Virus record (IMG/VR): IMGVR_UViG_3300030098_003180
Span: 1 to 51,137 of that record
Origin: a virus
Taxonomy: Duplodnaviria; Caudoviricetes
Direction: 5' to 3' (one strand)
Length of the DNA: 51,137 nucleotides
Shown: piece by piece, positions 1,035 to 47,429 of the stretch
Layout of the letters: each line of letters begins with the position of its first letter
How positions within the stretch are numbered: position 1 is the first letter of the stretch
Program-made: the position numbers and the translations under genes
The notes under the pieces: generated by a model
The model's input: only the letters and a program-made list of their open reading frames with translations
Told to the model about the DNA's origin: nothing
The model's database searches: none

Positions 1035-1268
1035 ATGGCTAAAAAAGAAACAAAAAAAGAATCTCTTGATATGGTATTGGACTTAATAGATACTGTAAAT
1101 GAAAGTATTAAAAACATTCATGATAGAGCAGATAATCTTCAACAACAAATAACTAAATTAACTGAAGCTACAAAACTAGATTCAGAATTACATCAAGGTC
1201 AAAATGAAATTAACGATGAGTTTGTAAAAATGGTTAATAGAATGGCTAAAAGGATGGGTATGGAATAA
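1035..1268 (+). CDS. Hypothetical coiled-coil protein
   Basis: AAGGAGG RBS; heptad-like sequence; TAATG coupling to next gene. Confidence 0.75.
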   Translation: MAKKETKKESLDMVLDLIDTVNESIKNIHDRADNLQQQITKLTEATKLDSELHQGQNEINDEFVKMVNRMAKRMGME

Positions 1269-1819: not shown

Positions 1820-2084
1820 TACTATGATAGAAACATATAAAGATTTACATCCAGACGAAGAATACGATGAGTATTCTCAAACACATACTGCCTATAGAGA
1901 TGAAGAAGATGAAAACTATCTTTTGGGTAGAGGTGTGTGGGATAGTGAAGAAGTACAAAAAGAAAGAGCTTTAAAAAAAATAAGGGAGGGAACTTATGAA
2001 AGCACGTTCCGCGAAAAACAAAGGGAGAAAACTACAAAACCTAGTCAGGGATCGCCTTCGCTCTGTGTATACGGAGATTCTTGA
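1782..2084 (+). CDS. Hypothetical acidic protein
   Basis: GGAAGGA upstream; acidic 100-aa ORF whose 3' end overlaps the next gene by 89 nt. Confidence 0.6.
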   Translation: MIEDLLNLKKQIDTMIETYKDLHPDEEYDEYSQTHTAYRDEEDENYLLGRGVWDSEEVQKERALKKIREGTYESTFREKQREKTTKPSQGSPSLCVYGDS

Positions 2085-5483: not shown

Positions 5484-8400
5484 TTAAAAACAAGACGACC
5501 AAGTCTCTTGCATTTTTTCTAATGCACTTATAGGTTTTGATTCTGTACCATTATGGTAACTGTTATCTCTAAATGTTTTCTTAGGCTGATACCAAGCACC
5601 ATCTTTACCTAACTGTATTACTGAGCTTCCTTCCCACATACCTTTCATAACAGAACTAATCTCGCTATGTGAAGGCATAGTGCCGCCTGGCCCCATTTTA
5701 TTTTGATTGCTTAAATTATATGTCATCCTATACAACTGTACAGGGTCCATAAAATACGAACCATTTACAAATTGAAGCATTAAATCTTGGCCTTGTCTTT
5801 GTAAGTTAGTATCAAATACAAAGTTAGGCAAATCTTTTAATGGAGAAATAAATCCAAATTGATCATATTTCCTTTTACTAGTTCCAAAATTAAATACATC
5901 TCCTTGCAAACTACCATCGTGCTGTTTTATAAAAGCTGTTTTAAATCTATCATTTAATCTCTGAAAAATATTATTAGCCTGTTCCATGCTCATAACATTC
6001 TGAGCCTCACCACGCATTGCTTTATTTAAAAACTTAAATACTAACCTTTCATTAGTGGTATTCTTTCTAAATGATGGGCTTAGTAAGTTGTTATTATTGC
6101 TATCTTTACCTATAATTTCCCAAGTATTATCTGAAACTTTAGGTACTAATAAATCAAATAAAAACTGCTGCATAATTTGTTCTGACTTTGCTGGAGATAT
6201 TTCTTTAACTCTTTGTAAAAAGTCTGAAACAACAACCATATCAATCTCACCCATCATGGAAAGCCTTCTAGAATCTAAAGGTTTAGTAGGGTCTGCATAA
6301 CTACGCCTTTCATTAGACAGAGTTTTAAAGAATCCATCCTTAGTATTAAACATAAGATTTCTAACCATCATTAATTCTGTTTCATTAAAGTTTCTAGAAT
6401 CTCTAGCAAAAGCATCATGCATTGCGCGTCTAACCATATTAACAGTTTTATCACCTAATATAATTTGACCTGGATTATTATATATAACATCACCTTTTCT
6501 TACTTCATATCTTTCACCTTGTTTAAACTCTCCTACTAAAAAGGTTTCTTCATTCCTTCTTCTATAAACAGCAATATGATTTTGAGCTACACCCTTTCTA
6601 TCTTTACGAACAATATTAGTTTTATGTAAATCATAAATATTAGCAGGGTCATTTAATTCTTTAACTATATTATCCCTAATCATTTGATTTCTTTTTAATT
6701 CACCTTGCCAATATTTACCACTTGATGTGTTTAATAAACCCTTTCTTTGCATTGAATTAACAACATCTTCTATCTTATCTATATTGAATATAATACTTTC
6801 AAGACCAGCAAATGTTTTTTGGTCAGACAGATATTTTTTTACTGCATCACTAACTTTACTGTCCCTTGTTTGAAGACCTAAAACTACTTCAGCAATAGAC
6901 GATTCAGAAGGGATAGATTTATGGAAATTTTCTTTAGAGTTTCTTAAACCTATCATAGCTTGAACAACAGGATTGGCAGACATGCCAGATCTAGTTTGAC
7001 CTTTTTTATATCCTTCACCTAAAAATCCTAACAAGTTATCCACAATTGATCCATATTCGTTTTGTTGGTAAGTTTTGGTAGTTTTATCAAACAATAAATT
7101 ACCTTTGTTGTCTCTTTTGAACGATGCAAATTTCATTAAAGATAAATTTTGCTCATACTTATACAACATTTCAAATGCAGACATTTTTCTAGATGTTCCA
7201 TCAGCGAAAGATTCTGTCATATGTATTAAGTTGTGTATACGATCCATTGGTCGTAACACTTTAGATATAAATCCTTCAATAGAAGTTTTAGGACTCAAAC
7301 CATCTCTATTTGCAGCACTAGGCAATTCTTCATAAGTAATATACTCAGCTTTATCTTTTACTTTTGACCTACGTATGTTTAAAAACCCATTTTCAGGATT
7401 TAGCCAAGCCTCTTTAACCATATCTACGTCTTGTATATTACCTCTTTCTTTATATATATCAATAGTAGATTTAATAAGGTTTTTAGTATGTGTCATAGCA
7501 TCTACAAATGCTGCATCATTCTTTAATTCAACAACATATTTTTCACCTTCATAATTAAACTCAAATAATTTAAAGTTTTTATTAGCACCTGTTACTTTAC
7601 CGTCTAAAATAGATTGAGAATACGCTGTTCCAGGTTTAAATAACTCTTGTTTAGTAGATATATATTGCAATAACGTACTAAGAGTAGACACTTGTCTCAT
7701 TAATGGTGCTCTTTTAGATTCTAGCTGCTTTAATACTGCTGCATAATTAGTCATCTGTAAAGGGTTATCCATTTTAACTTCGCTAAATGCTCTATCAAAA
7801 ACAGCCATACTTGCAGGATCATTATATCCAGCAACGTTATAAGCTTCTCTAACAACTTCACCAGGAAGTGCAAAGAAACTAGAAGATTTATCTAAATCAA
7901 AGTCAGCATCTTGAGGTTGTATTACGTCTAAGTAATTCATTTCACTAACTGGGCCTCTTCTTCTGTCTAATAATTTTTCAACACGAGTAATAACCCAATC
8001 ATTCATACCTACTTTAGGAACTCTAAGGTCTATTTTAGCAAGATGTACAGACTGAAAATCATTACCAGTCTTGCCTTTACCCCAAACAAAATTTCTCATT
8101 TTTTCAGTTACTGTAGAGGCTGCATTATTATTTCTTACATTAGGTTTATTTGAGTGACTTTCTAACGTATATGTTTGATTGTAATTACCAAATTTCCATT
8201 GAGTATTATCTAATGTCCCATTTAAATACATTGCTAAATCACCTATTGTTTTAATACCTTCTGACCTAAGAGCTGATTCCATAATAACATTATATGAATC
8301 TAAAATATGTTGCTCAAATTTAATAATTTGCTTACCTATATCATTAAGATTACCACCAGTTTTTTTCATATACTGTTGATGTGGTCCTACTATATGGCCA

Positions 8401-11400
8401 TCATGAGTAATTAATACATCCATACCAGTTTCAATACCAATTATATCTTGTTTATTTTTGAAGAACTTATTAATCATATTTTCATTTATTTTAAATACAA
8501 GGCTGACACCTTCTCTAGGATTTATTCTACTAACTTTACCGCCATCTCCTATTTTATACATACTTGATATATCTGTACTATGCTCTGAATAAGACATTCC
8601 AGATCCACCAAATGAATGTTGAACCCCGTTTCTTCTATCACCTAGAGAATAACCAGAACCTGCTGACATGACATTCATTTTGCCTGCACTTACAGAACTA
8701 GATGCAAAGTTTCTACTACCCATATAATCACTTGAAACCATTTTTTCTACAGAAGGTTGCATAAATTCAAACAAAGGTAAACCATTAGCATTTAATACAG
8801 CTTCTGCACCTATAAGTTTGTTTATAGTTCCACCACTTTCATGCTCAAAGTTTTTAAGTCTAGTTACTACTTTTTGATATGAAAATGGATTTTCTGACAA
8901 TGAACTAAATGTTTGTATCATTTCACTAACAACATTATTTTGACCAGTCATTTCAGCTAACGATCTAATAGCTTTGTTAGACATTAAATTACCAAATCCA
9001 TAACTTAAAGTAGCATCATGAATACCAGCTATAGATTTAATCATTATACCTTCTCTACCTATTTCAACAACTTCATTAACCGCATCTCTTGGTAATCCTT
9101 TTTCAAACATAACTCTTTGAAAATCAGTTTCACTACTTATTCTTTCTAAATGAACACCAGGCTTCCTTGTTTCTACACCATTTGAAACCTCATGAATCTT
9201 ATGTGTGCTTTCAAAGCCAATAGAATCAGTAAAATAATCTCCACCTATTTTCATAAGTTTGTCCATTTCTGGATGGAATTTATAAGCAGTTTTACCTACA
9301 TGGGTTACAAGTTCACCTTTAACAGAGTCGAAATGTTTATACATTTCAATAGGTTTGATAGCAACATTAAATCCTACAACAGTTTGAACAGGGACATACC
9401 TACCATCTTTTTTTATGTAGTTACCTTTACTATCCTTTTGCATAACTACTCTATTATTCATATCTAATTTATCACCCCAAATAAACCAATCTGTTCTTGC
9501 TCCTTTGCTCATTAACATAGCAGCCATTTCAGGTAAAGATAAATATTTTTCAGCATTTTGAGCTGAAGCGTGAATAGTCTCATAAGATTCCATAATCAAA
9601 TCAACTCTTTCTTGTACTTCAGACTTGTTTAATTTAGGATTATTAAATTGGATTTGTTGTATTAATTGTTCTTTGGCTAACTCTTTAGTCCCAAAAAAGC
9701 TTGCACCAAGACCACTCTCATCAAACAAGTTTAAAGTTCTATGTTTGGTTGGAGTTTTCCCGTCTTGACCAAAAAATTGTCTGTTATATATATCAACAAC
9801 TTCTTTCATGTTAGAGTTAGGATCTATAAATGTTTCAAGAAAATGTTTAGCAGTCTCTAAGTTTCTTTTAGTTAAAGCAAAACCTCCTCTAGGAGAGTCT
9901 AATTTTATGTATTTTAAATCTGATAACACTTCTTTTATTGTAGTATTTCCAGACATAACATCTGCTAATCTTTGACCACTAAAGGCATTTAATAATCTAG
10001 TAATAGATACAAGCCTTTGAACGTTTTCAGCGTTAGGCTCAATTTTAAAATTACCCTTACTATCCATTGTGGCGCCTAATTCTTTCTTAAAATAATTTTC
10101 TATTATTCTAGCCGCATCAGCAACAGGCATAGCAGTTGTTGCAAGTTCATTAATTAATTGTTTTCTTAAAGGACCTTCAGCTAATGACCATGCTTGTGTT
10201 ACTTTTTGCATAGAATACTGAGGTATAATAACTACAGTTTTTTCATCTAATTGAACAGGAATTAATTCTAACTGCCCTTTCTTTCCTTTACCACCTAAAT
10301 AACTTTTAAATTTATCAAAGAAAAGTATATCATTTTTAGATAATACCTCCCTAATACTTGGAGCTAAAGGTAATCCAGCAGCTAATTGATTGTAAACTTT
10401 TTGAATTTGTTCTGGAGGTAAAGAAGAACTTCTTGTTCCTTTATAAGATATTTCTGGACTAAATAATAATATATCACCCACATCAAACAAACCTAATGAT
10501 TGTTGTAGTTTGTTTATACCAACATTCCAATTAGAAATACTTGTTTCTTCTACATGAACCATGCCATTTTCATACTTCGCTAAATGAACCTTTTTAGAAC
10601 CTAAAGCGCTTTGCATTAAAAACATAGTATCTAGTATAAAATCTTCATATGTCCCTGGTTCTCTTCCATTTTTCTTTTGTCTGGTAATATGAGCTTCAAC
10701 TAAAGGTTTCATATTCTCAATAAAAGGTTTCATTACAACATCAATATACTGCTTTTCTGTAAAAGTACCTCTTATAACAGAGTTAATTCCATCTACTAAC
10801 ATTTCTCTATAAGTTATATCTTTAACACCTAAGTTATTAAGTAAATTAGTTTTAACTTGTCCTTGCATTTGATCTAAACGTTCAAACAATAATCTTGGTT
10901 GAGTTAATATATCGGACATTGTTTCAGCAGATATTCCCCATTTACTTTCGTATTGAGAAGGGCTAATAGATGTGTGGGTTTGATGTGGCCTACCAACACG
11001 ATCACTATTTAAAACATTATTGATTCTTTCTTCTATATAATTTTGAACATCTTCATAAGTTTCAAATCTACCAAGTTCATTCCTTTTATCTAAAGCTTTA
11101 ATAACTATAGATTCAAATTCTTGCCTTAAATTTTCTAAAGTTTTTGATGTTGCCTTACCAGGTTGTCCAATAATCAATTTTTGCTCAAATTGCTGCATTT
11201 TTTCACTTGCATCCATTAATGTTCTTAACCCAATTGCATCATTGGTTGCCATATATTTTTGAATTAAAGACAAAACATTTTCATTTACATTACTAATTTC
11301 AGTTACTTTAGTCATTAATTCTTTAGCGAGATCAGGTTTAGTGTCTAAAATAGATTCAGCTTGAGCCATTAGGTTCATAATTCTTTCCTGGATCTTATTG

Positions 11401-14400
11401 TTATCAATAAATAAGCCTGCACTTTCTGAAACATGAAATTTATTTACTTCACCTAAAGCAGTTTCAATCTCTTGCATTAATTTTTGACGCTCTCTACCTG
11501 GCATATCTAAGTCAATCGGTTTATCTCCAAACTTTATTATACCTTTAGTTTTCTTTAATTGATTTTTTAAAGGAGCTTCAACTTTATTCTCATATTCAGT
11601 TATCTTATTTAACAAAACATCTCTTTCAGCTGGAGGAAGATTTAATCTTACAACACTTTGTCTTAAAGATTCAGCTGATCTAACTACTACAGAACCACCT
11701 GATTTAACTTTAAGCAAAGATTCTCTATCCATCATACTAACTATAACTCTTCTTAAACCTGAAGTTAAGTTTGCGTTTCCTGTTAATTCATTCGCATATT
11801 CTCTATACACGAAGACATTCATAAAGGCATTATATTCACTATTGCTTTCAAATATATTTCCAAAAGCTTTATTTAAGTCCTTACTTAAAGTCTCAAATTC
11901 ACCCTTATTAATATCTCTTGCGCCAGTTTTACCAGTATTATCAAACAACTCTAATACTCTATTAATTCTTTCTAAATTGGCTATTTCATTAGCCTCCATA
12001 GATGCTTCTACGCCTATCTCACCTTTTAAAACTTCTTCTACAACTCTAAATCTAGAACGACCTCCTAGCATTTTTTGTATATTAGAATACATTGTTTGTA
12101 ATTCTGGGGTTCCTCCACCTTGTTTACCTAAAACCTCATAAACTAATCTACTTCTTTTAATTCTATTAGCAGCTTGAACTGACTGCCAAATAGCAGTTTG
12201 TCCCATTATATACTTATCTTTAAACCCTGCATCTGGTTTAGTGAAACCTGGAACATTCTCTCTCCAGTTATCCATCTTCTTGCCATCTAAGCCATTATAC
12301 ATAAGTTCATGCATAGACTCTGTGCTAGTTTTATAAACCTCTAACATTTTTTCAAGTTTACCTAATTCTATTTTTTCCTGATTCCAAGAAACACCTTTGC
12401 TGCTAACATCTAAACTACCTGCGGCCTTAGCAGAATCAATTGTTTCTAAAAGAGAATGAGCAGCATCTGCTATTGGTTTTCCAGCATAGTCTAAACTTAT
12501 AGTTTTTAAAGCATCTCTTACTGTTTCATGTACAAACATTTTACCATTTTGTTCACTAACAATAGAATCTAAACCTATAGCGCCTAAAGAATCCTTTATA
12601 TATTGATGACCCATTTGCTGAATGTTCTCAGTTATTTTTAATTTAGCTAACTCTACCTTAGTATCTATAAGATCTAAATTACTAGAATCAATAACTGTTC
12701 CATCATTAAGCTTAAAGTTATCAAATGTTTTAATATACTCTAAAGCTTCTGCTTGAGTCATATACTTCATTTGTTTCCCAACCATACCAGCTGCAGATAA
12801 TGATGATATTTTAGTTGCTATATTTAATAAGTTTTGCAAATCATTTACTTCTTTAGAAGTTCTAGCAGCAGCTTCTATATTATTATCTTTTTTATGTTGA
12901 GCTTGAATTTTAATTAAGTCACCAATTTTCTTTTGAACGTGAGTTTGAAAAGGCAAAGGTCTTTCATTAAACTTAACTTTATTATCTATAGACTCTTGTA
13001 ATCTTTGTTGGTTTTTATTTATATCTACAAATTCTGCTCTAGAACCTTCTATAAATTCACTTATTTGAATACTAGATTCTTTAGAAGCTGAATCAAGAAT
13101 TAACTTAACAGCTGTATCTGTATCCCCTATTGTAAATGCATTATATATATCGTTCTTAGCAGGCTCAAAACCTAACCTTTCATAAGACTGTAAGAATCTT
13201 TGTATTTCACTACCATTACCATGTAATCCTGTTTGATCATAAAACTTAGGTAACCTTGCAGATTTAGGGTCAAATTTCTTACCACGCTTCATATACAACA
13301 TACCAACCCAATGGTCAAACACTAACTTGTCTACAGGATAATCTTCTGTAAACAGTATACCTGAATCGTACGCTGCTGAATAAGCTCTTGCGTTCATAGC
13401 TAAAGAACCTACAGATGCCCTTGTAAATGATTCAAAACCATCTCTAACAATTTCTTTTTGTAATTTTCTAATTAAACCATCTTTTCCAGGTAATGATTTC
13501 TTTACTATATTATAAGCGTTTTCTAATATTTCTCTTTCATTTACACCTAAAGAAGTACCTTTTCCTACTTTAGTAATCATATCATCTAATGCCGACTTTG
13601 TTAAACCAGAGCCTGGAAACGCAGCACCTATATCATCAGCACCTTTAGAAAAACTATTTATAAATGCTAATAAAGCACTATCATTTTGATCTGCCGCTTT
13701 CTTTCCAAACCTTGATCTAAGCATGCTACCCATAGCCTTAAAGTCAGCTATCATTCCAGACTTACCAAATTGAACACCTTTACCACCAGGTATATATCTT
13801 ATAGGGGCAAGTATTGCACCAGTTTGAGCTCCATGCATAGCTCTTTTATACCACTCTTCATAACCCCATTCATTTTCATTTAACCCATATTGTTGAGCAG
13901 CATAATCACCAGCTTCACCAGCTATCGTATCCCATGTTGCTAATAACACAGATTCATAAGCTATATCGCCTGCTAAAATAGCCATCTTTTTATTCCATCC
14001 ACGCTCTAATAGTTTATGAGTTATAGATTGTCCGAAATGAACATGTCTTGTTTGAGATGCAGAGTTTATTATAGATGATGTCATTTTTTCTACAGACTCT
14101 TCAAAAGATTCTTTACCCGCTTTTTTAACTCCTTCTTCACCAAGCTCTTTTGTAAGCATTTCAGCAACTTCTTTTTTTACATTATCTGTAATTTTTGTTG
14201 TCAATTGAGGGGCGCTATTGAAAGGATTTACTCTAGCTTCTTTTCTTTTAAAGTAATTAAACCAATTGTAGCTTCCTGCCGCCTCTTTACCTGCTTCATC
14301 AATTTGTGAACGAGTTGATTTTATGACTGTTTTCATAGCATCATCGCTCACACTTGTCACAATACCTTTAGCAATATCATCACTTAAATTTTTAACTGCA

Positions 14401-14873
14401 CTTTTACCTGCTTCTTGAACAGCCTTTTTCATACCAGCGCCTGCAACTTTACTTGTAAGACCTATACCTTTACCTACAGCCCCAATACCTGTTAATATAC
14501 CTGCACCTGTACCAATAGCATATCCTATTTTACCTGCTAAAGATTCATCTTTCCAATCTTGTGAACCAAATTGAGCAGAAATATCAGGTCCTCCAGATAC
14601 TTCAGAAGCAACATCAGCTACCGTAGGTACTACAAAAGTTTCACCAAAACCCCATAAAGCATTACCAACAAAGTCAAATAAAAAGAAATCATCTACCCAA
14701 GTATATGTAGGCTCTTTAGGCGTTGCAGATTTTACACCCATTTTTCTAGCAGTTGGACTTAAAGGATCACCAGGTAATTGTAACCCTAAAGGTTTTGCTG
14801 GTTCTGTTTGAACTGCAGTAGGCTTTATAGTTGTTCTATTTCGCCAGTCTTCATAACTTTTATATTTACCCAT
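5484..14873 (-). CDS. Putative virion-packaged single-chain two-barrel RNA polymerase (3129 aa)
   Basis: DADFDLDK (DFDLD at about aa 2324-2328) preceded about 40 aa earlier by LRVP, paralleling beta' NRxP...NADFDGD and the DFDID motif of crAss-like phi14:2 gp66. Gly/Ala-rich hydrophobic N-terminus; giant size; located in the cargo block. Confidence 0.75.
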   Translation of the reverse strand: MGKYKSYEDWRNRTTIKPTAVQTEPAKPLGLQLPGDPLSPTARKMGVKSATPKEPTYTWVDDFFLFDFVGNALWGFGETFVVPTVADVASEVSGGPDISAQFGSQDWKDESLAGKIGYAIGTGAGILTGIGAVGKGIGLTSKVAGAGMKKAVQEAGKSAVKNLSDDIAKGIVTSVSDDAMKTVIKSTRSQIDEAGKEAAGSYNWFNYFKRKEARVNPFNSAPQLTTKITDNVKKEVAEMLTKELGEEGVKKAGKESFEESVEKMTSSIINSASQTRHVHFGQSITHKLLERGWNKKMAILAGDIAYESVLLATWDTIAGEAGDYAAQQYGLNENEWGYEEWYKRAMHGAQTGAILAPIRYIPGGKGVQFGKSGMIADFKAMGSMLRSRFGKKAADQNDSALLAFINSFSKGADDIGAAFPGSGLTKSALDDMITKVGKGTSLGVNEREILENAYNIVKKSLPGKDGLIRKLQKEIVRDGFESFTRASVGSLAMNARAYSAAYDSGILFTEDYPVDKLVFDHWVGMLYMKRGKKFDPKSARLPKFYDQTGLHGNGSEIQRFLQSYERLGFEPAKNDIYNAFTIGDTDTAVKLILDSASKESSIQISEFIEGSRAEFVDINKNQQRLQESIDNKVKFNERPLPFQTHVQKKIGDLIKIQAQHKKDNNIEAAARTSKEVNDLQNLLNIATKISSLSAAGMVGKQMKYMTQAEALEYIKTFDNFKLNDGTVIDSSNLDLIDTKVELAKLKITENIQQMGHQYIKDSLGAIGLDSIVSEQNGKMFVHETVRDALKTISLDYAGKPIADAAHSLLETIDSAKAAGSLDVSSKGVSWNQEKIELGKLEKMLEVYKTSTESMHELMYNGLDGKKMDNWRENVPGFTKPDAGFKDKYIMGQTAIWQSVQAANRIKRSRLVYEVLGKQGGGTPELQTMYSNIQKMLGGRSRFRVVEEVLKGEIGVEASMEANEIANLERINRVLELFDNTGKTGARDINKGEFETLSKDLNKAFGNIFESNSEYNAFMNVFVYREYANELTGNANLTSGLRRVIVSMMDRESLLKVKSGGSVVVRSAESLRQSVVRLNLPPAERDVLLNKITEYENKVEAPLKNQLKKTKGIIKFGDKPIDLDMPGRERQKLMQEIETALGEVNKFHVSESAGLFIDNNKIQERIMNLMAQAESILDTKPDLAKELMTKVTEISNVNENVLSLIQKYMATNDAIGLRTLMDASEKMQQFEQKLIIGQPGKATSKTLENLRQEFESIVIKALDKRNELGRFETYEDVQNYIEERINNVLNSDRVGRPHQTHTSISPSQYESKWGISAETMSDILTQPRLLFERLDQMQGQVKTNLLNNLGVKDITYREMLVDGINSVIRGTFTEKQYIDVVMKPFIENMKPLVEAHITRQKKNGREPGTYEDFILDTMFLMQSALGSKKVHLAKYENGMVHVEETSISNWNVGINKLQQSLGLFDVGDILLFSPEISYKGTRSSSLPPEQIQKVYNQLAAGLPLAPSIREVLSKNDILFFDKFKSYLGGKGKKGQLELIPVQLDEKTVVIIPQYSMQKVTQAWSLAEGPLRKQLINELATTAMPVADAARIIENYFKKELGATMDSKGNFKIEPNAENVQRLVSITRLLNAFSGQRLADVMSGNTTIKEVLSDLKYIKLDSPRGGFALTKRNLETAKHFLETFIDPNSNMKEVVDIYNRQFFGQDGKTPTKHRTLNLFDESGLGASFFGTKELAKEQLIQQIQFNNPKLNKSEVQERVDLIMESYETIHASAQNAEKYLSLPEMAAMLMSKGARTDWFIWGDKLDMNNRVVMQKDSKGNYIKKDGRYVPVQTVVGFNVAIKPIEMYKHFDSVKGELVTHVGKTAYKFHPEMDKLMKIGGDYFTDSIGFESTHKIHEVSNGVETRKPGVHLERISSETDFQRVMFEKGLPRDAVNEVVEIGREGIMIKSIAGIHDATLSYGFGNLMSNKAIRSLAEMTGQNNVVSEMIQTFSSLSENPFSYQKVVTRLKNFEHESGGTINKLIGAEAVLNANGLPLFEFMQPSVEKMVSSDYMGSRNFASSSVSAGKMNVMSAGSGYSLGDRRNGVQHSFGGSGMSYSEHSTDISSMYKIGDGGKVSRINPREGVSLVFKINENMINKFFKNKQDIIGIETGMDVLITHDGHIVGPHQQYMKKTGGNLNDIGKQIIKFEQHILDSYNVIMESALRSEGIKTIGDLAMYLNGTLDNTQWKFGNYNQTYTLESHSNKPNVRNNNAASTVTEKMRNFVWGKGKTGNDFQSVHLAKIDLRVPKVGMNDWVITRVEKLLDRRRGPVSEMNYLDVIQPQDADFDLDKSSSFFALPGEVVREAYNVAGYNDPASMAVFDRAFSEVKMDNPLQMTNYAAVLKQLESKRAPLMRQVSTLSTLLQYISTKQELFKPGTAYSQSILDGKVTGANKNFKLFEFNYEGEKYVVELKNDAAFVDAMTHTKNLIKSTIDIYKERGNIQDVDMVKEAWLNPENGFLNIRRSKVKDKAEYITYEELPSAANRDGLSPKTSIEGFISKVLRPMDRIHNLIHMTESFADGTSRKMSAFEMLYKYEQNLSLMKFASFKRDNKGNLLFDKTTKTYQQNEYGSIVDNLLGFLGEGYKKGQTRSGMSANPVVQAMIGLRNSKENFHKSIPSESSIAEVVLGLQTRDSKVSDAVKKYLSDQKTFAGLESIIFNIDKIEDVVNSMQRKGLLNTSSGKYWQGELKRNQMIRDNIVKELNDPANIYDLHKTNIVRKDRKGVAQNHIAVYRRRNEETFLVGEFKQGERYEVRKGDVIYNNPGQIILGDKTVNMVRRAMHDAFARDSRNFNETELMMVRNLMFNTKDGFFKTLSNERRSYADPTKPLDSRRLSMMGEIDMVVVSDFLQRVKEISPAKSEQIMQQFLFDLLVPKVSDNTWEIIGKDSNNNNLLSPSFRKNTTNERLVFKFLNKAMRGEAQNVMSMEQANNIFQRLNDRFKTAFIKQHDGSLQGDVFNFGTSKRKYDQFGFISPLKDLPNFVFDTNLQRQGQDLMLQFVNGSYFMDPVQLYRMTYNLSNQNKMGPGGTMPSHSEISSVMKGMWEGSSVIQLGKDGAWYQPKKTFRDNSYHNGTESKPISALEKMQETWSSCF

Positions 14874-45363: not shown

Positions 45364-45505
45364 ATTAAACTGTTCCACTGCGAACCTATGAGATGGGCTA
45401 CATCAGAGTCATGAACTGAGTTGCTTAGCGCTGGTCTGTCTCATTAAATGTTGCAAGTAAACCTTTCTAACAAGAACTGTTAAATATAATAGAAAGGAGG
45501 TGTCC

Positions 45506-45637
45506 ATGAAGGATACTACTTGTAAGAAATGTACTGTGCGTGATCAGTATATTACTACGTTGCTTGACACTGCTACTAGGTATAAGAATGCTTATATCAA
45601 GGCGCAGAAGAAGTTGCGTAACAGAGCTGGGAAATAA
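45506..45637 (+). CDS. Small basic protein (43 aa, not in ORF track)
   Basis: Full AAAGGAGGTG RBS; MKDTTCKKCTVRDQYITTLLDTATRYKNAYIKAQKKLRNRAGK. Confidence 0.65.
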   Translation: MKDTTCKKCTVRDQYITTLLDTATRYKNAYIKAQKKLRNRAGK

Positions 45638-45676
45638 TCCTGGCTCTTTGAACTCTCAAACCAATAAGGAGAAATT

Positions 45677-45880
45677 ATGGCAAAACCTAGTGTTATAGAT
45701 GTATTACCTGAAGAGGTAGTTGAATTAGATAGTATTGAGAATCAAACGCAAGCTTTCTTAGTTGCAATGAAAGATATACTAGATACTCAATGTAGGATGA
45801 TGATGGATAAGGATAGTTATGTGGAACGCAGACGGATTGAAAGAATTGTATTACCAAAGGGATTCAAGTTAATTGGATAA
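45677..45880 (+). CDS. Hypothetical protein
   Basis: AAGGAG RBS; 67 aa. Confidence 0.7.
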   Translation: MAKPSVIDVLPEEVVELDSIENQTQAFLVAMKDILDTQCRMMMDKDSYVERRRIERIVLPKGFKLIG

Positions 45881-45886
45881 CCTTTC

Positions 45887-45965
45887 GGGGATGATAGGTA
45901 TTCGACTGTTCTTAACGCTGTCATGCAGAGGGAATAGGAAGTGAGTTCGATTCTCACCATCTCCA
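45887..45965 (+). ncRNA. Miniature tmRNA-like RNA (tRNA-like domain only)
   Basis: 5' GGGGATGATAGGTATTCGAC resembles tmRNA 5' ends. Acceptor GGGGATG/CATCTCC has a G3:U pair and discriminator A; T arm GTGAG-TTCGATT-CTCAC; no D stem; helix CTGTTCT/GGAATAG capped by a short loop. Confidence 0.7.
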
Positions 45966-45989
45966 CTAAAGATTTTATGAACAATGAAA

Positions 45990-46710
45990 ATAGGTCGCTT
46001 CGGATCTATAGGATAGTACATGGTAACATGTATTAAAGTTAATAGCGCCAGCAATGGTCCAACGGAAGCAAGCAGGTATTGCTACTAACCTCAATGGAGT
46101 AATCTTTGAGAGGATGGTAGTCAGGCTGATGGTAAAGCTGTGAGTATGGTGACATACAATAAATAAACCTGTAAGATACTTAAGATGAGCCTGTGGGAGG
46201 TGAGTCTGGGTGTTATGAAAACATGGTAATCTCGTAGTGATATGAGATATGTCGTGTCAAGATTTGATGTCTCCCAAAGACATTGGAAGAGTCTAGTTAT
46301 GTATTCACTGTCGTAAGATAGCGAGCATATCCACGAGCACTGGACTTGGAATACCTAAAACTAACTTAATCGTTAAATAATATATAACAGAATATAAAAA
46401 CGACAAAGTTCTTGTGGCGTTACAGAGCATAGGGCTCTAATACCTTACACTTAGGTGAATAAGGTGCTGAATGGTTGGTCAACAACTTGAAGGTTTTGTG
46501 ACGAAAGCGTCAGTCTTGGGTCTGCAGCCTGGGATGTCATTGTGACTTAATTGATGTTATTAGTTGCTGAAACAGCTGTAACGTTAAGAGTGGTAGTCTA
46601 TAACTACTGAGCTTGCTAATGTACTTGAGTCAAATCAAGTGGATAAGTCTAAAACCCATTATGGGAACATAGGACGAAAGTATTAGCGTAAAGAGTGTAA
46701 TCTCAACTCG
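45990..46710 (+). ncRNA. Large structured ncRNA, GOLLD/ROOL-type candidate
   Basis: About 720 nt with no credible ORF, GC higher than its flanks, many GNRA/UUCG-capped hairpins and long-range helices, and adjacent to tRNA genes. Boundaries are approximate and the family is not confirmed. Confidence 0.65.
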
Positions 46711-46740
46711 ATAAATAACTTTAAATAACTTGGAGGTATT

Positions 46741-46887
46741 ATGGAACCTGGAACTTGGACATATTATTTGATGTACGACTTTGTTTATTTAGTAAATATG
46801 ATAATAACTATTGTTCTAAAATGTTATGCAATTAGAGCTTTGTATCTATTTATTGTTAAAAAAAGATGGCCTAAACAATGGCTGTAA
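46741..46887 (+). CDS. Small membrane protein (48 aa, not in ORF track)
   Basis: GGAGG RBS; MEPGTWTYYLMYDFVYLVNMIITIVLKCYAIRALYLFIVKKRWPKQWL. Confidence 0.6.
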   Translation: MEPGTWTYYLMYDFVYLVNMIITIVLKCYAIRALYLFIVKKRWPKQWL

Positions 46888-47165
46888 ATTGGTAGGAGAA
46901 ATGATCTATAGGGGTGACAAGCCCAAAACAGCTATAGATCTGTTGGCACCCATCATCGATTGGGGTATACCAGAGGCAAGACCACGAAAGTCGAGCTGTT
47001 GGTGGGTGCTTACTTAAAATATTAAGGTAAATTAACAAAATACCTTAAATAATTAGGGCTGTAGTGACAGGCGAGTGAGCTGGATTGCAATCTAAGGATG
47101 ATAGGCATTATTTAAAGCACATCACACTAACGAGGGTCAATCAGCCCTATAACTTTGGAGGAAAT

Positions 47166-47429
47166 ATGATAAATAGATTTAATGACGATGTCTATAAACA
47201 TTATAGATATGATGAAAGTATTATGCAGTCAATGACTGTTGGTAATATTATGGACGCTTTAAGATATGGCTTAAAACATAGAGCAAAATTAGAGGATATT
47301 GCTAAATTCCTAATAAATAAAAGAAGAATCTCTATGTCGTCAGGTGATAGAAGAAAAGCAAATAGTCTTGAAAGGAAAGTTGAGAGACTAAAAGAATTAG
47401 GTTATGAAATATCTAAGGAGGGTGAATAA
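47166..47429 (+). CDS. Hypothetical basic protein (start revised to ATG 47166)
   Basis: GGAGG RBS 5' of ATG 47166; TAATG coupling to the next gene. Confidence 0.7.
   Translation: MINRFNDDVYKHYRYDESIMQSMTVGNIMDALRYGLKHRAKLEDIAKFLINKRRISMSSGDRRKANSLERKVERLKELGYEISKEGE

Follow-up and report, generated by a model that had tools for sequence, protein, structure and literature searches.

What GOLLD RNAs do has been an open question since 2009, and the GOLLD cages that have been solved are empty. According to two reports, GOLLD RNAs build closed dihedral cages from 12 to 14 copies and need no protein to do so: the env-38 GOLLD, 833 nt in length, makes a D7 14-mer cage that is 380 Å across, the 700-nt GOLLD of Streptococcus agalactiae makes a 12-mer, and the number of copies in a cage depends on whether helices such as P21b are present (PMC12286853, PMC12990946). 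In the solved cage the 5' domains form the caps and the 3' domains the ring, with the linker disordered inside, and a variable 5' domain is described as a trait of the family (PMC12286853). Roles proposed in these reports include enclosing transfer RNAs (tRNAs), ribosomes or other cargo, as well as keeping embedded tRNAs from maturing (PMC12286853, PMC12990946). Here, we describe an element in the IMG/VR virus record IMGVR_UViG_3300030098_003180, a stretch of 51,137 bases with an estimated completeness of 91% that is referred to throughout, at its full length, as the window. Positions 45970-46712 of its + strand are almost certainly a GOLLD RNA gene of ~720-740 nt in an uncultured tailed phage.

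An earlier, sequence-only reading of the window had described positions 45990-46710 as an ornate structured noncoding RNA beside tRNA-like genes, and had placed it either in the GOLLD or ROOL classes or among new large RNAs. In a permissive Rfam scan of positions 45600-47300, which took in all 4227 families at E-values up to 10, the GOLLD model RF02032 covers 46289-46709 on the + strand, from model position 1 to position 416 of 416, with 147.8 bits and an E-value of 6.6e-41; a separate search returned the same match at an E-value of 4.7e-43. Apart from GOLLD and the transfer-messenger RNA (tmRNA) match described below, the permissive scan gave only chance-level small nucleolar RNA and small RNA hits and a weak permuted tmRNA match (17.9 bits where the cut-off is 47, E-value 0.47). 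The Rfam test that the sequence-only reading had proposed therefore gives GOLLD, and in the same scan neither ROOL nor the group I and group II introns that it had also named were matched. ROOL, like the element, is a large ornate RNA of phages and prophages near tRNA genes, and makes RNA-only cages (PMC12286853). The size, the many GNRA-type loops and the phage setting would loosely fit a self-splicing intron of either group, ROOL or another known large RNA, but with no such match, and with no interrupted gene flanking the element, the probability of this explanation is next to nil.

Relatives were collected from IMG/VR by a motif scan for the GOLLD 3' end, which gave at least 120 loci, and by a scan with a word from the 5' domain, which gave 31 loci, 29 of them new (individual loci carry the prefix L below). 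The whole 741-nt element was found end to end by nhmmer in L136 (692 bits), L034, L135 and L148, and also in L147, where it is cut at the 3' end; 18 further loci match more weakly, always with the 5' part followed by the 3' part. L034 is 85% identical to the window over 45957-46717. On eight relatives RF02032 scores 142.7-176.1 bits, and six of the eight lie above the curated Rfam cut-off of 150 bits, with 155.2 bits for L136, 168.4 for L034, 167.3 for L148 and 149.7 for L135, the nearest relatives. The window is part of a clade that straddles the Rfam cut-off, and default scans undercount GOLLD because this clade sits around that line. What is known here is the GOLLD family, and what is new is an additional member of it, not a new class of RNA.

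The last point bears on the other branch of the sequence-only reading, in which the large structured RNA would belong to a new class and resemble GOLLD only locally. Such a class could be argued for on the grounds that RF02032 spans only the last hairpin of the 5' region, the linker and the 3' domain, leaving the 5' 300 nt unmodelled and without an Rfam family of their own. Nevertheless, the match extends over the full model with the E-value given above, the 5' part is homologous to regions upstream of Rfam-positive 3' domains in L048, L051, L138 and L078, and variability of the 5' domain is itself a described GOLLD trait, as cited above. The new-class branch falls with the full-length match, and we give it scarcely any probability; by the measure that the sequence-only reading had itself set, a strong GOLLD match also reduces the novelty of the find.

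We then consider the fold. For the + strand of 45970-46712 the folding energy is -211.8 kcal/mol, whereas 20 shuffles give -182.1 +/- 4.8 (z -6.17, none of the 20 as good). The - strand gives a z of -0.75 with 4 of 20 shuffles as good; only the + strand is structured. An alignment of 16 full-length sequences was made with MAFFT (alignment A4) and its consensus obtained with RNAalifold, which yields 104 pairs in 21 helices, 71 of the pairs showing compensatory change. In this consensus 95.1% of 1643 cells are paired, and sliding the partners by 1-3 columns lowers the share to 33.4-40.5%; the 95.1% is somewhat inflated, and to that extent counts against us, since the structure was derived from the same sequences as the alignment. 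The slid controls themselves and the compensatory counts are fairer measures: double changes occur in 71 pairs compared with 14-22 in the slid controls, and none of 500 shuffles reaches any of the five measures. Covariation is as clear in the helices of the 5' domain as it is in the 3' domain, and the 16-sequence alignment thus adds covariation support for a 5' domain that is absent from the public model.

These results also bear on the suggestion that the region is noncoding spacer or DNA for a small protein, with hairpins that arose by chance or act at the level of DNA. The record is A/T-rich (GC content ~0.33), and such DNA yields many short hairpins. However, the fold is strand specific, its G-U pairs work on the + strand only, the pairs covary, and the longest open reading frame (ORF) inside the element encodes just 41 amino acids (aa), which bears out the earlier statement that the element holds no credible ORF. 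The chance-hairpin reading is refuted by the RF02032 match together with the covariation counts, and its probability is negligible.

All 19 sequence words quoted in the sequence-only reading occur where it had placed them, and the borders it drew agree with those of the covarying helices, the first of which starts at 45992 and the last of which ends at 46710. The GOLLD 5' domain, at 45992-46290 (+), is defined by nhmmer homology and covarying helices, and the same 5' domain was found by nhmmer upstream of other GOLLD 3' domains. Every consensus helix of the domain has pairs with compensatory change. The helices of the domain are 45992-96/46003-07, 46018-22/46027-31 with a GUAA loop, 46047-50/46055-58, 46072-77/46167-72, which encloses both 46090-92/46110-12 and 46146-48/46153-55 (the latter with a GUGA loop), 46175-77/46212-14 with 46183-86/46204-07, 46230-36/46241-47 with a GUGA loop, and 46267-72/46278-83, all on the + strand. 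Three hairpins that the sequence-only reading had singled out, GTACATGGTAACATGTAT at 46016, GTATGGTGACATAC at 46144 and ATCTCGTAGTGATATGAGAT at 46229, reappear in this covarying consensus. The ATGTCT/AGACAT hairpin (46267/46278) fared less evenly: the close relative L034 keeps the pairing by a double change, but only 46.9% of cells are paired, because distant rows align poorly there.

Downstream of the 5' domain, the hairpin at 46298-46329 (+) opens the Rfam model (model positions 1-62) and is the last helix before the linker; as helix 11 of the consensus it shows compensatory change in 7 of 11 pairs. The A/U-rich linker between the 5' and 3' domains (46330-46417, +) aligns to an unpaired, A-rich stretch of RF02032, with no consensus pairs from RNAalifold and no tRNA from ARAGORN. 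The 3' domain follows at 46418-46710 (+) as the remainder of the RF02032 match. It is closed by the helix 46418-25/46576-83, with compensatory change in 7 of 8 pairs, which corresponds to the long-range pairing CGTTACAG/CTGTAACG (46418/46576) that the sequence-only reading had picked out. Within the 3' domain are the inner helices 46442-47/46460-65, 46466-69/46492-94, 46499-503/46508-12 and 46592-97/46603-08, then 46614-21/46681-88 (compensatory change in 7 of 8 pairs), which encloses 46622-29/46634-41 and 46647-50/46672-75, and lastly 46692-96/46706-10 around a GUAAUCUCA loop, again all on the + strand. Each of the ten 3'-domain helices is 80-100% paired. The covarying consensus includes the hairpins GTAGT/ACTAC (46593/46603) and ACTTGA/TCAAGT (46623/46635) and the long-range GCTAAT/ATTAGC (46615/46682), all of which had been noted before. 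The hairpin TGACG/CGTCA (46499/46508) has compensatory change in 3 of 5 pairs. For AGAGC/GCTCT (46424/46434) pairing is high, at 92.5%, but changes are seen on one side only, and two of its bases also belong to the covarying long-range helix.

A single pairing had been proposed between the 5' and 3' domains, the long-range AGCAAGC/GCTTGCT (46067/46611), and it fails the covariation test: its pair 134-787 is G-C in five rows of the alignment and unpaired in 11. It was rejected as an inter-domain link, as both arms overlap helices that covary, and a contact may still be made through four invariant pairs. This failure agrees with the published spatial separation of the GOLLD domains (PMC12286853).

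Two small hairpins at 46513-46546 (+) lie where the Rfam model also has two hairpins, and we take them to be P21a and P21b. In the first, the self-complementary word UGCA is part of the loop CUGCA, and the stem is seen only when the sequence is folded singly; the second reads GUCA-UUG-UGAC. Nowhere does the match fit less well: posterior probability is low in the Rfam alignment here, and non-canonical pairs are marked. A self-complementary tetranucleotide occurs at the same aligned loop offset in 11 of 16 GOLLDs (UGCA, GGCC, GAUC or AAUU), and such words are the pattern that would be expected for a symmetric loop-loop contact; that the loop is L21a, the loop through which copies of env-38 make such a contact, is our own reading of the sequences.

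Taken together, the element agrees with GOLLD in every feature tested except the curated score line. It shares with the family a full-length model match, a conserved 3' domain with its closing long-range helix, a 5' domain that varies, an A-rich linker, phage origin and adjoining tRNA-type genes on the same strand, and its length of ~720-740 nt lies between the 700 and 833 nt of the solved GOLLDs. On our reading it also has, like env-38, two hairpins at the P21a/b place of the model, and a self-complementary loop word at the first. Unlike GOLLD as modelled, it scores 2.2 bits under the cut-off, has extra bases in the P21 region that are left unfitted, and carries no tRNA in the linker. This copy probably forms a GOLLD cage, judging from the retained domain plan and from the self-complementary loop word at the place where a symmetric loop-loop contact has been described.

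Several points weigh against the assignment, or against its extension to what this copy does. The GOLLD score is 2.2 bits below the curated cut-off, so that a default Rfam scan of the whole window misses GOLLD and gives a tmRNA-like match only; the gathering cut-off is, however, a convention of annotation and not a biological trait. The poorest fit to the model, at 46513-46550, is where the window has extra bases. A promoter scan found 17 promoter-like sites by the element where 13.5 +/- 3.8 are expected, which is chance level, there is no terminator within the element, and no promoter or terminator stands out beside it. The contigs from RNA libraries described below show presence and not transcription, strand, level or ends, and libraries of this kind may contain DNA. 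In the nearest relative, L136, GOLLD is not preceded by a tRNA-like element, and what we say of the cage, the transcript ends and the function of this copy is drawn from homologues or from inference.

The first two of these points invite the explanation that the element is a decaying remnant of GOLLD, no longer under selection, which would account for a score of 147.8 against a cut-off of 150 and for the poor fit at 46513-46550. Against this, the shortfall in score is common to the whole clade, relatives at 78-85% identity score 149.7-168.4 bits, and members of the clade differ mostly by changes that preserve the structure. The 5' domain, which lies outside the Rfam scoring, covaries as well. 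Further evidence comes from a variant contig of 605 nt from an RNA library that differs from the window at eight places, none of which breaks a consensus pair. The changes 46502 C>U and 46509 G>A fall on both sides of one pair of TGACG/CGTCA, converting C-G to U-A; those at 46278, 46511 and 46618 convert Watson-Crick pairs to G-U; the one at 46531 changes a G-U of the single-sequence fold to A-U; and 46453 and 46470 are outside consensus pairs. We therefore consider a remnant to be very improbable, and retain the reading of the element as a GOLLD gene.

A word search placed the stretch in marine metagenome runs: at least half of its words are found in each of six DNA-type runs, and seven of the listed runs with words of the stretch are RNA libraries. 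Contigs from four RNA-library runs, belonging to three studies, carry 46009-46657. No RNA-library contig was found over 45400-46008 or 46658-47400, which include the flanking genes and the tRNA-like element described next, and this is no sign of silence there or of an RNA end.

Immediately upstream of the GOLLD gene, and separate from it, is a reduced version of tmRNA, the RNA that rescues ribosomes in bacteria: a mini-tmRNA consisting of the tRNA-like domain (TLD) only, at 45887-45968 (+). The tmRNA model RF00023 matches it with 59.1 bits (cut-off 47) and an E-value of 1.1e-20. The alignment takes in the two ends of the model, and 306 model positions are represented by 14 nt. It is laid out as a 7-base-pair (bp) acceptor stem with G3-U70, a stub hairpin for the messenger RNA (mRNA)-like part and a T arm, followed by ACUA, and acceptor stem, stub hairpin and T arm are all present in the fold of 45887-45968. 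The G3-U70 pair is the alanine identity pair. On the window ARAGORN calls no tRNA and no tmRNA, and no tag at 45887-45968; with no tag frame, and with the mRNA-like domain replaced by 14 nt, we file the gene as TLD-only and not as a working tmRNA. The tRNA-like genes that the sequence-only reading placed next to the large RNA thus come down to this one tmRNA-type domain, with no called tRNA. The TLD ends at 45968, 1 nt before a short A/U-rich spacer (45969-45991, +) and 23 nt before the first GOLLD helix at 45992. The spacer is present in the window, L136, L034 and L147, and is replaced by ~5 nt in L148 and L135, so that it is not a conserved structural part.

Other copies of the TLD were sought with R1, a model built here, which scores above 50 bits in 8 of 150 sources (the window, L034, L048, L135, L078, L116, L148 and L138; next best 32 bits), although seven of these first eight matches were training rows and only L138 (51.6 bits) was new. 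The copies outside the window are L034:845-925, L148:967-1047, L135:1953-2032(-), L078:9350-9431, L116:3425-3506, L048:1343-1423, L138:866-946(-) and L347:4382-4459. RF00023 itself gives 41.9-53.2 bits on six TLD loci. Across seven aligned copies 100% of cells are paired, the third acceptor pair is G-U in all seven, and compensatory change is seen at two of the seven acceptor pairs (pairs 4 and 5). The 3' end reads ACUA or ACAA, not ACCA. The TLD lies just upstream of GOLLD in the window, L034, L148 and L135, and at most ~200 nt downstream of it in L078, L116, L048 and L138; in all, eight of the nine copies above 50 bits, the window included, are within ~300 nt of GOLLD. The ninth, L347, came from a T-arm scan for more TLD-only genes, which gave at least 117 stretches, 115 of them new; ARAGORN called 82 ordinary tRNAs and left 33 uncalled. 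Of eleven further loci scored with R1, only L347 is TLD-like, with 54.3 bits compared with 33.2 for the next best. No GOLLD 3' motif lies on the same strand in any of the 33 uncalled loci, L347 among them, within the stretch examined. TLD-only genes are therefore not confined to GOLLD loci, and the link between TLD and GOLLD is not quantifiable from these listings.

The same scan material holds a smaller kind of element. Viral contigs L277, L285, L295, L319, L320, L324 and L343 contain 'top-half' minihelices of ~45 nt, uncalled by ARAGORN, in which a 6-bp acceptor-like stem is joined directly to the same T arm and ends in ACUA, with no D or anticodon arm.

The precedent found for a TLD-only tmRNA is sparse, amounting to one phage and two plastid genes as compared with nine sources here, the window included. 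Mycobacteriophage DS6A has a TLD-only tmRNA, and a molecule similar to it strongly inhibits tmRNA, perhaps by titrating SmpB (PMC4131195); the two plastid tmRNA genes, ~65 bp long, lack the coding sequence (PMC11915505). The copies described here resemble the DS6A gene, as far as its description goes, in being phage genes that are little more than the tRNA-like domain of tmRNA without a tag frame. They differ in coming from uncultured phages, in lying near GOLLD in eight of nine cases and in the ACUA or ACAA end. No SmpB family was found in the phage record, which is 91% complete. By analogy, interference with host trans-translation would be the likeliest role of the TLD. A tmRNA-like gene beside GOLLD is not mentioned in the open-access text that was searched, and the word 'tmRNA' is absent from the structure paper of 2025 (PMC12286853).

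Among the 120 other GOLLD loci listed, ARAGORN finds tRNAs near GOLLD in 38, all on the GOLLD strand. Directly upstream of GOLLD, the TLD occupies the slot in the window, L148 and L135, the TLD together with an ochre-suppressor tRNA in L034, a suppressor tRNA alone in L147, a Met-tRNA in L138 and a tRNA in L078, and L136 has no tRNA-like element there. The Met-tRNA of L138 is the arrangement described for env-38, which lies downstream of a Met-tRNA (PMC12286853); in the window, by contrast, the abutting gene is a tmRNA mimic and not a tRNA. The suppressor genes, at L034:1050-1144 (+) and L147:648-737 (-), are long-arm tRNAs with anticodon UUA (ARAGORN 'tRNA-Stop'). A tRNA with this anticodon would read the UAA stop codon, and it fills the slot held by the TLD in the window.

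With regard to how the RNA might be made, GOLLD could be part of a rightward multi-gene transcript, with its 5' end set by tRNA-type processing of the abutting tRNA-like element. We hold this proposal tentatively and with some doubt: processing enzymes for tRNA suggest themselves because a tRNA-like element abuts GOLLD, yet the arrangement in L136 implies that a flanking tRNA-type gene is not required for the 5' end. It is conceivable, but rather doubtful, that GOLLD acts on the host translation machinery or tRNA pool during lytic growth, a role suggested by the constant presence of tRNA-type genes beside it on the same strand, in the window a tmRNA mimic. More speculative, and on present evidence unlikely, is that the GOLLD of this clade and the abutting tRNA-type gene make up a single processed RNA module directed at the end of translation. 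The tRNA-type gene would be interchangeable (a tagless tmRNA mimic, an ochre-suppressor tRNA, both, or a Met-tRNA), and the cage would retain or deliver small tRNA-like RNAs, or act alongside them, these RNAs interfering with ribosome rescue, through titration of SmpB, and with the reading of stop codons. If true, such a module would provide the first concrete functional partner for GOLLD. The RNA itself is a tidy annotation result, and the wider value lies in its neighbours: the slot beside GOLLD in this clade is filled by tRNA-type genes all bearing on translation termination or ribosome rescue, which is a lead that is cheap and testable.

The source of the window is an uncultured tailed phage. 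A structural gene block runs leftward, with Pfam and PHROGs matches to portal, large terminase and major head proteins, as well as tail-type genes, and a small terminase match in the same block likewise identifies the record as that of a phage. A rightward block of small genes without family starts at ~44,840 and contains the GOLLD element; when 19 neighbouring and structural proteins were compared with Pfam and PHROGs, the small genes around the RNA had no family. Against cultured phages, the listed matches of the large terminase have 23.5-25.3% identity and not one of all 739 reaches 60%, which is too distant to name a host or genus. A DNA search with 45880-47160 gave no match in a phage collection that may lack records near the window. 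Genome contigs were also scanned with the 5'-domain word TAGCGCCAGNAATGGTYC, which returned 72 stretches, none of them related by nhmmer to GOLLD, the TLD or the motifs downstream of GOLLD; they sit in unrelated, mostly coding contexts, ~140 chance matches would be expected in the 596 Gb, and the scan is uninformative on hosts. Two further features of the record are that its long ORFs are open under the standard code and that the structural block includes a single ORF of 3129 aa (5484-14873, -).

Immediately 3' of GOLLD is a 48-codon ORF (46741-46887, +) without a Pfam family, the product of which looks hydrophobic by eye. Its ribosome-binding site (RBS) and start (AACUUGGAGGUAUUAUG) are kept in L148, L136 and L135, and the protein sequence diverges. 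In L136 (~1950-2040(-)) and L135 (~1130-1220(-)), GOLLD is separated from the small ORF by an ORF of 7 codons and by a hairpin that resembles a terminator (AGCCAG-loop-CUGGCU with a U run behind it); both this ORF and the hairpin are lacking in the window and L148.

Further downstream are two motifs, neither of which has an Rfam match. Motif X (46888-47016, +) is also present in L148, L136, L135, L151, L153 and L157; of 13 pattern matches, 6 are true copies and the others arose by chance in coding DNA. It consists of UUGGUAGGAG, a hairpin GAUCUAUAG...AAAACAG-CUAUAGAUC and a longer hairpin CACCCAUCAUCGAU...GCUGUUGGUGGGUG, with compensatory changes in both hairpins. As a 38-aa gene it was rejected: only the window and L148 have the frame open, interruptions occur in L136, L135 and L157, and the motif is read as RNA. 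Motif Y (47055-47149, +) was found in 26 of 27 viral stretches (L151-L182 plus L135 and L148) as elements of 74-165 nt, made up of an invariant AGGGCUGUAGUGACAGGCGAG, a hairpin of variable sequence and length and an invariant CUAACGAGGGUCAAUCAGCCCUA. Thirteen of 15 folded copies share a rod with a 7-bp outer stem, UGAC/GUCA, an AGG/AGG internal loop and a variable stem, from which L151 deviates in its inner part and L135 wholly. An RBS follows in most copies, at a distance of ~10-20 nt, and the downstream gene differs, encoding a protein of ~450 aa in 13 copies (one cut by the end of the locus) and one of ~85 aa in four, including the window. Motif Y may be a cis-regulatory or protein-binding leader.

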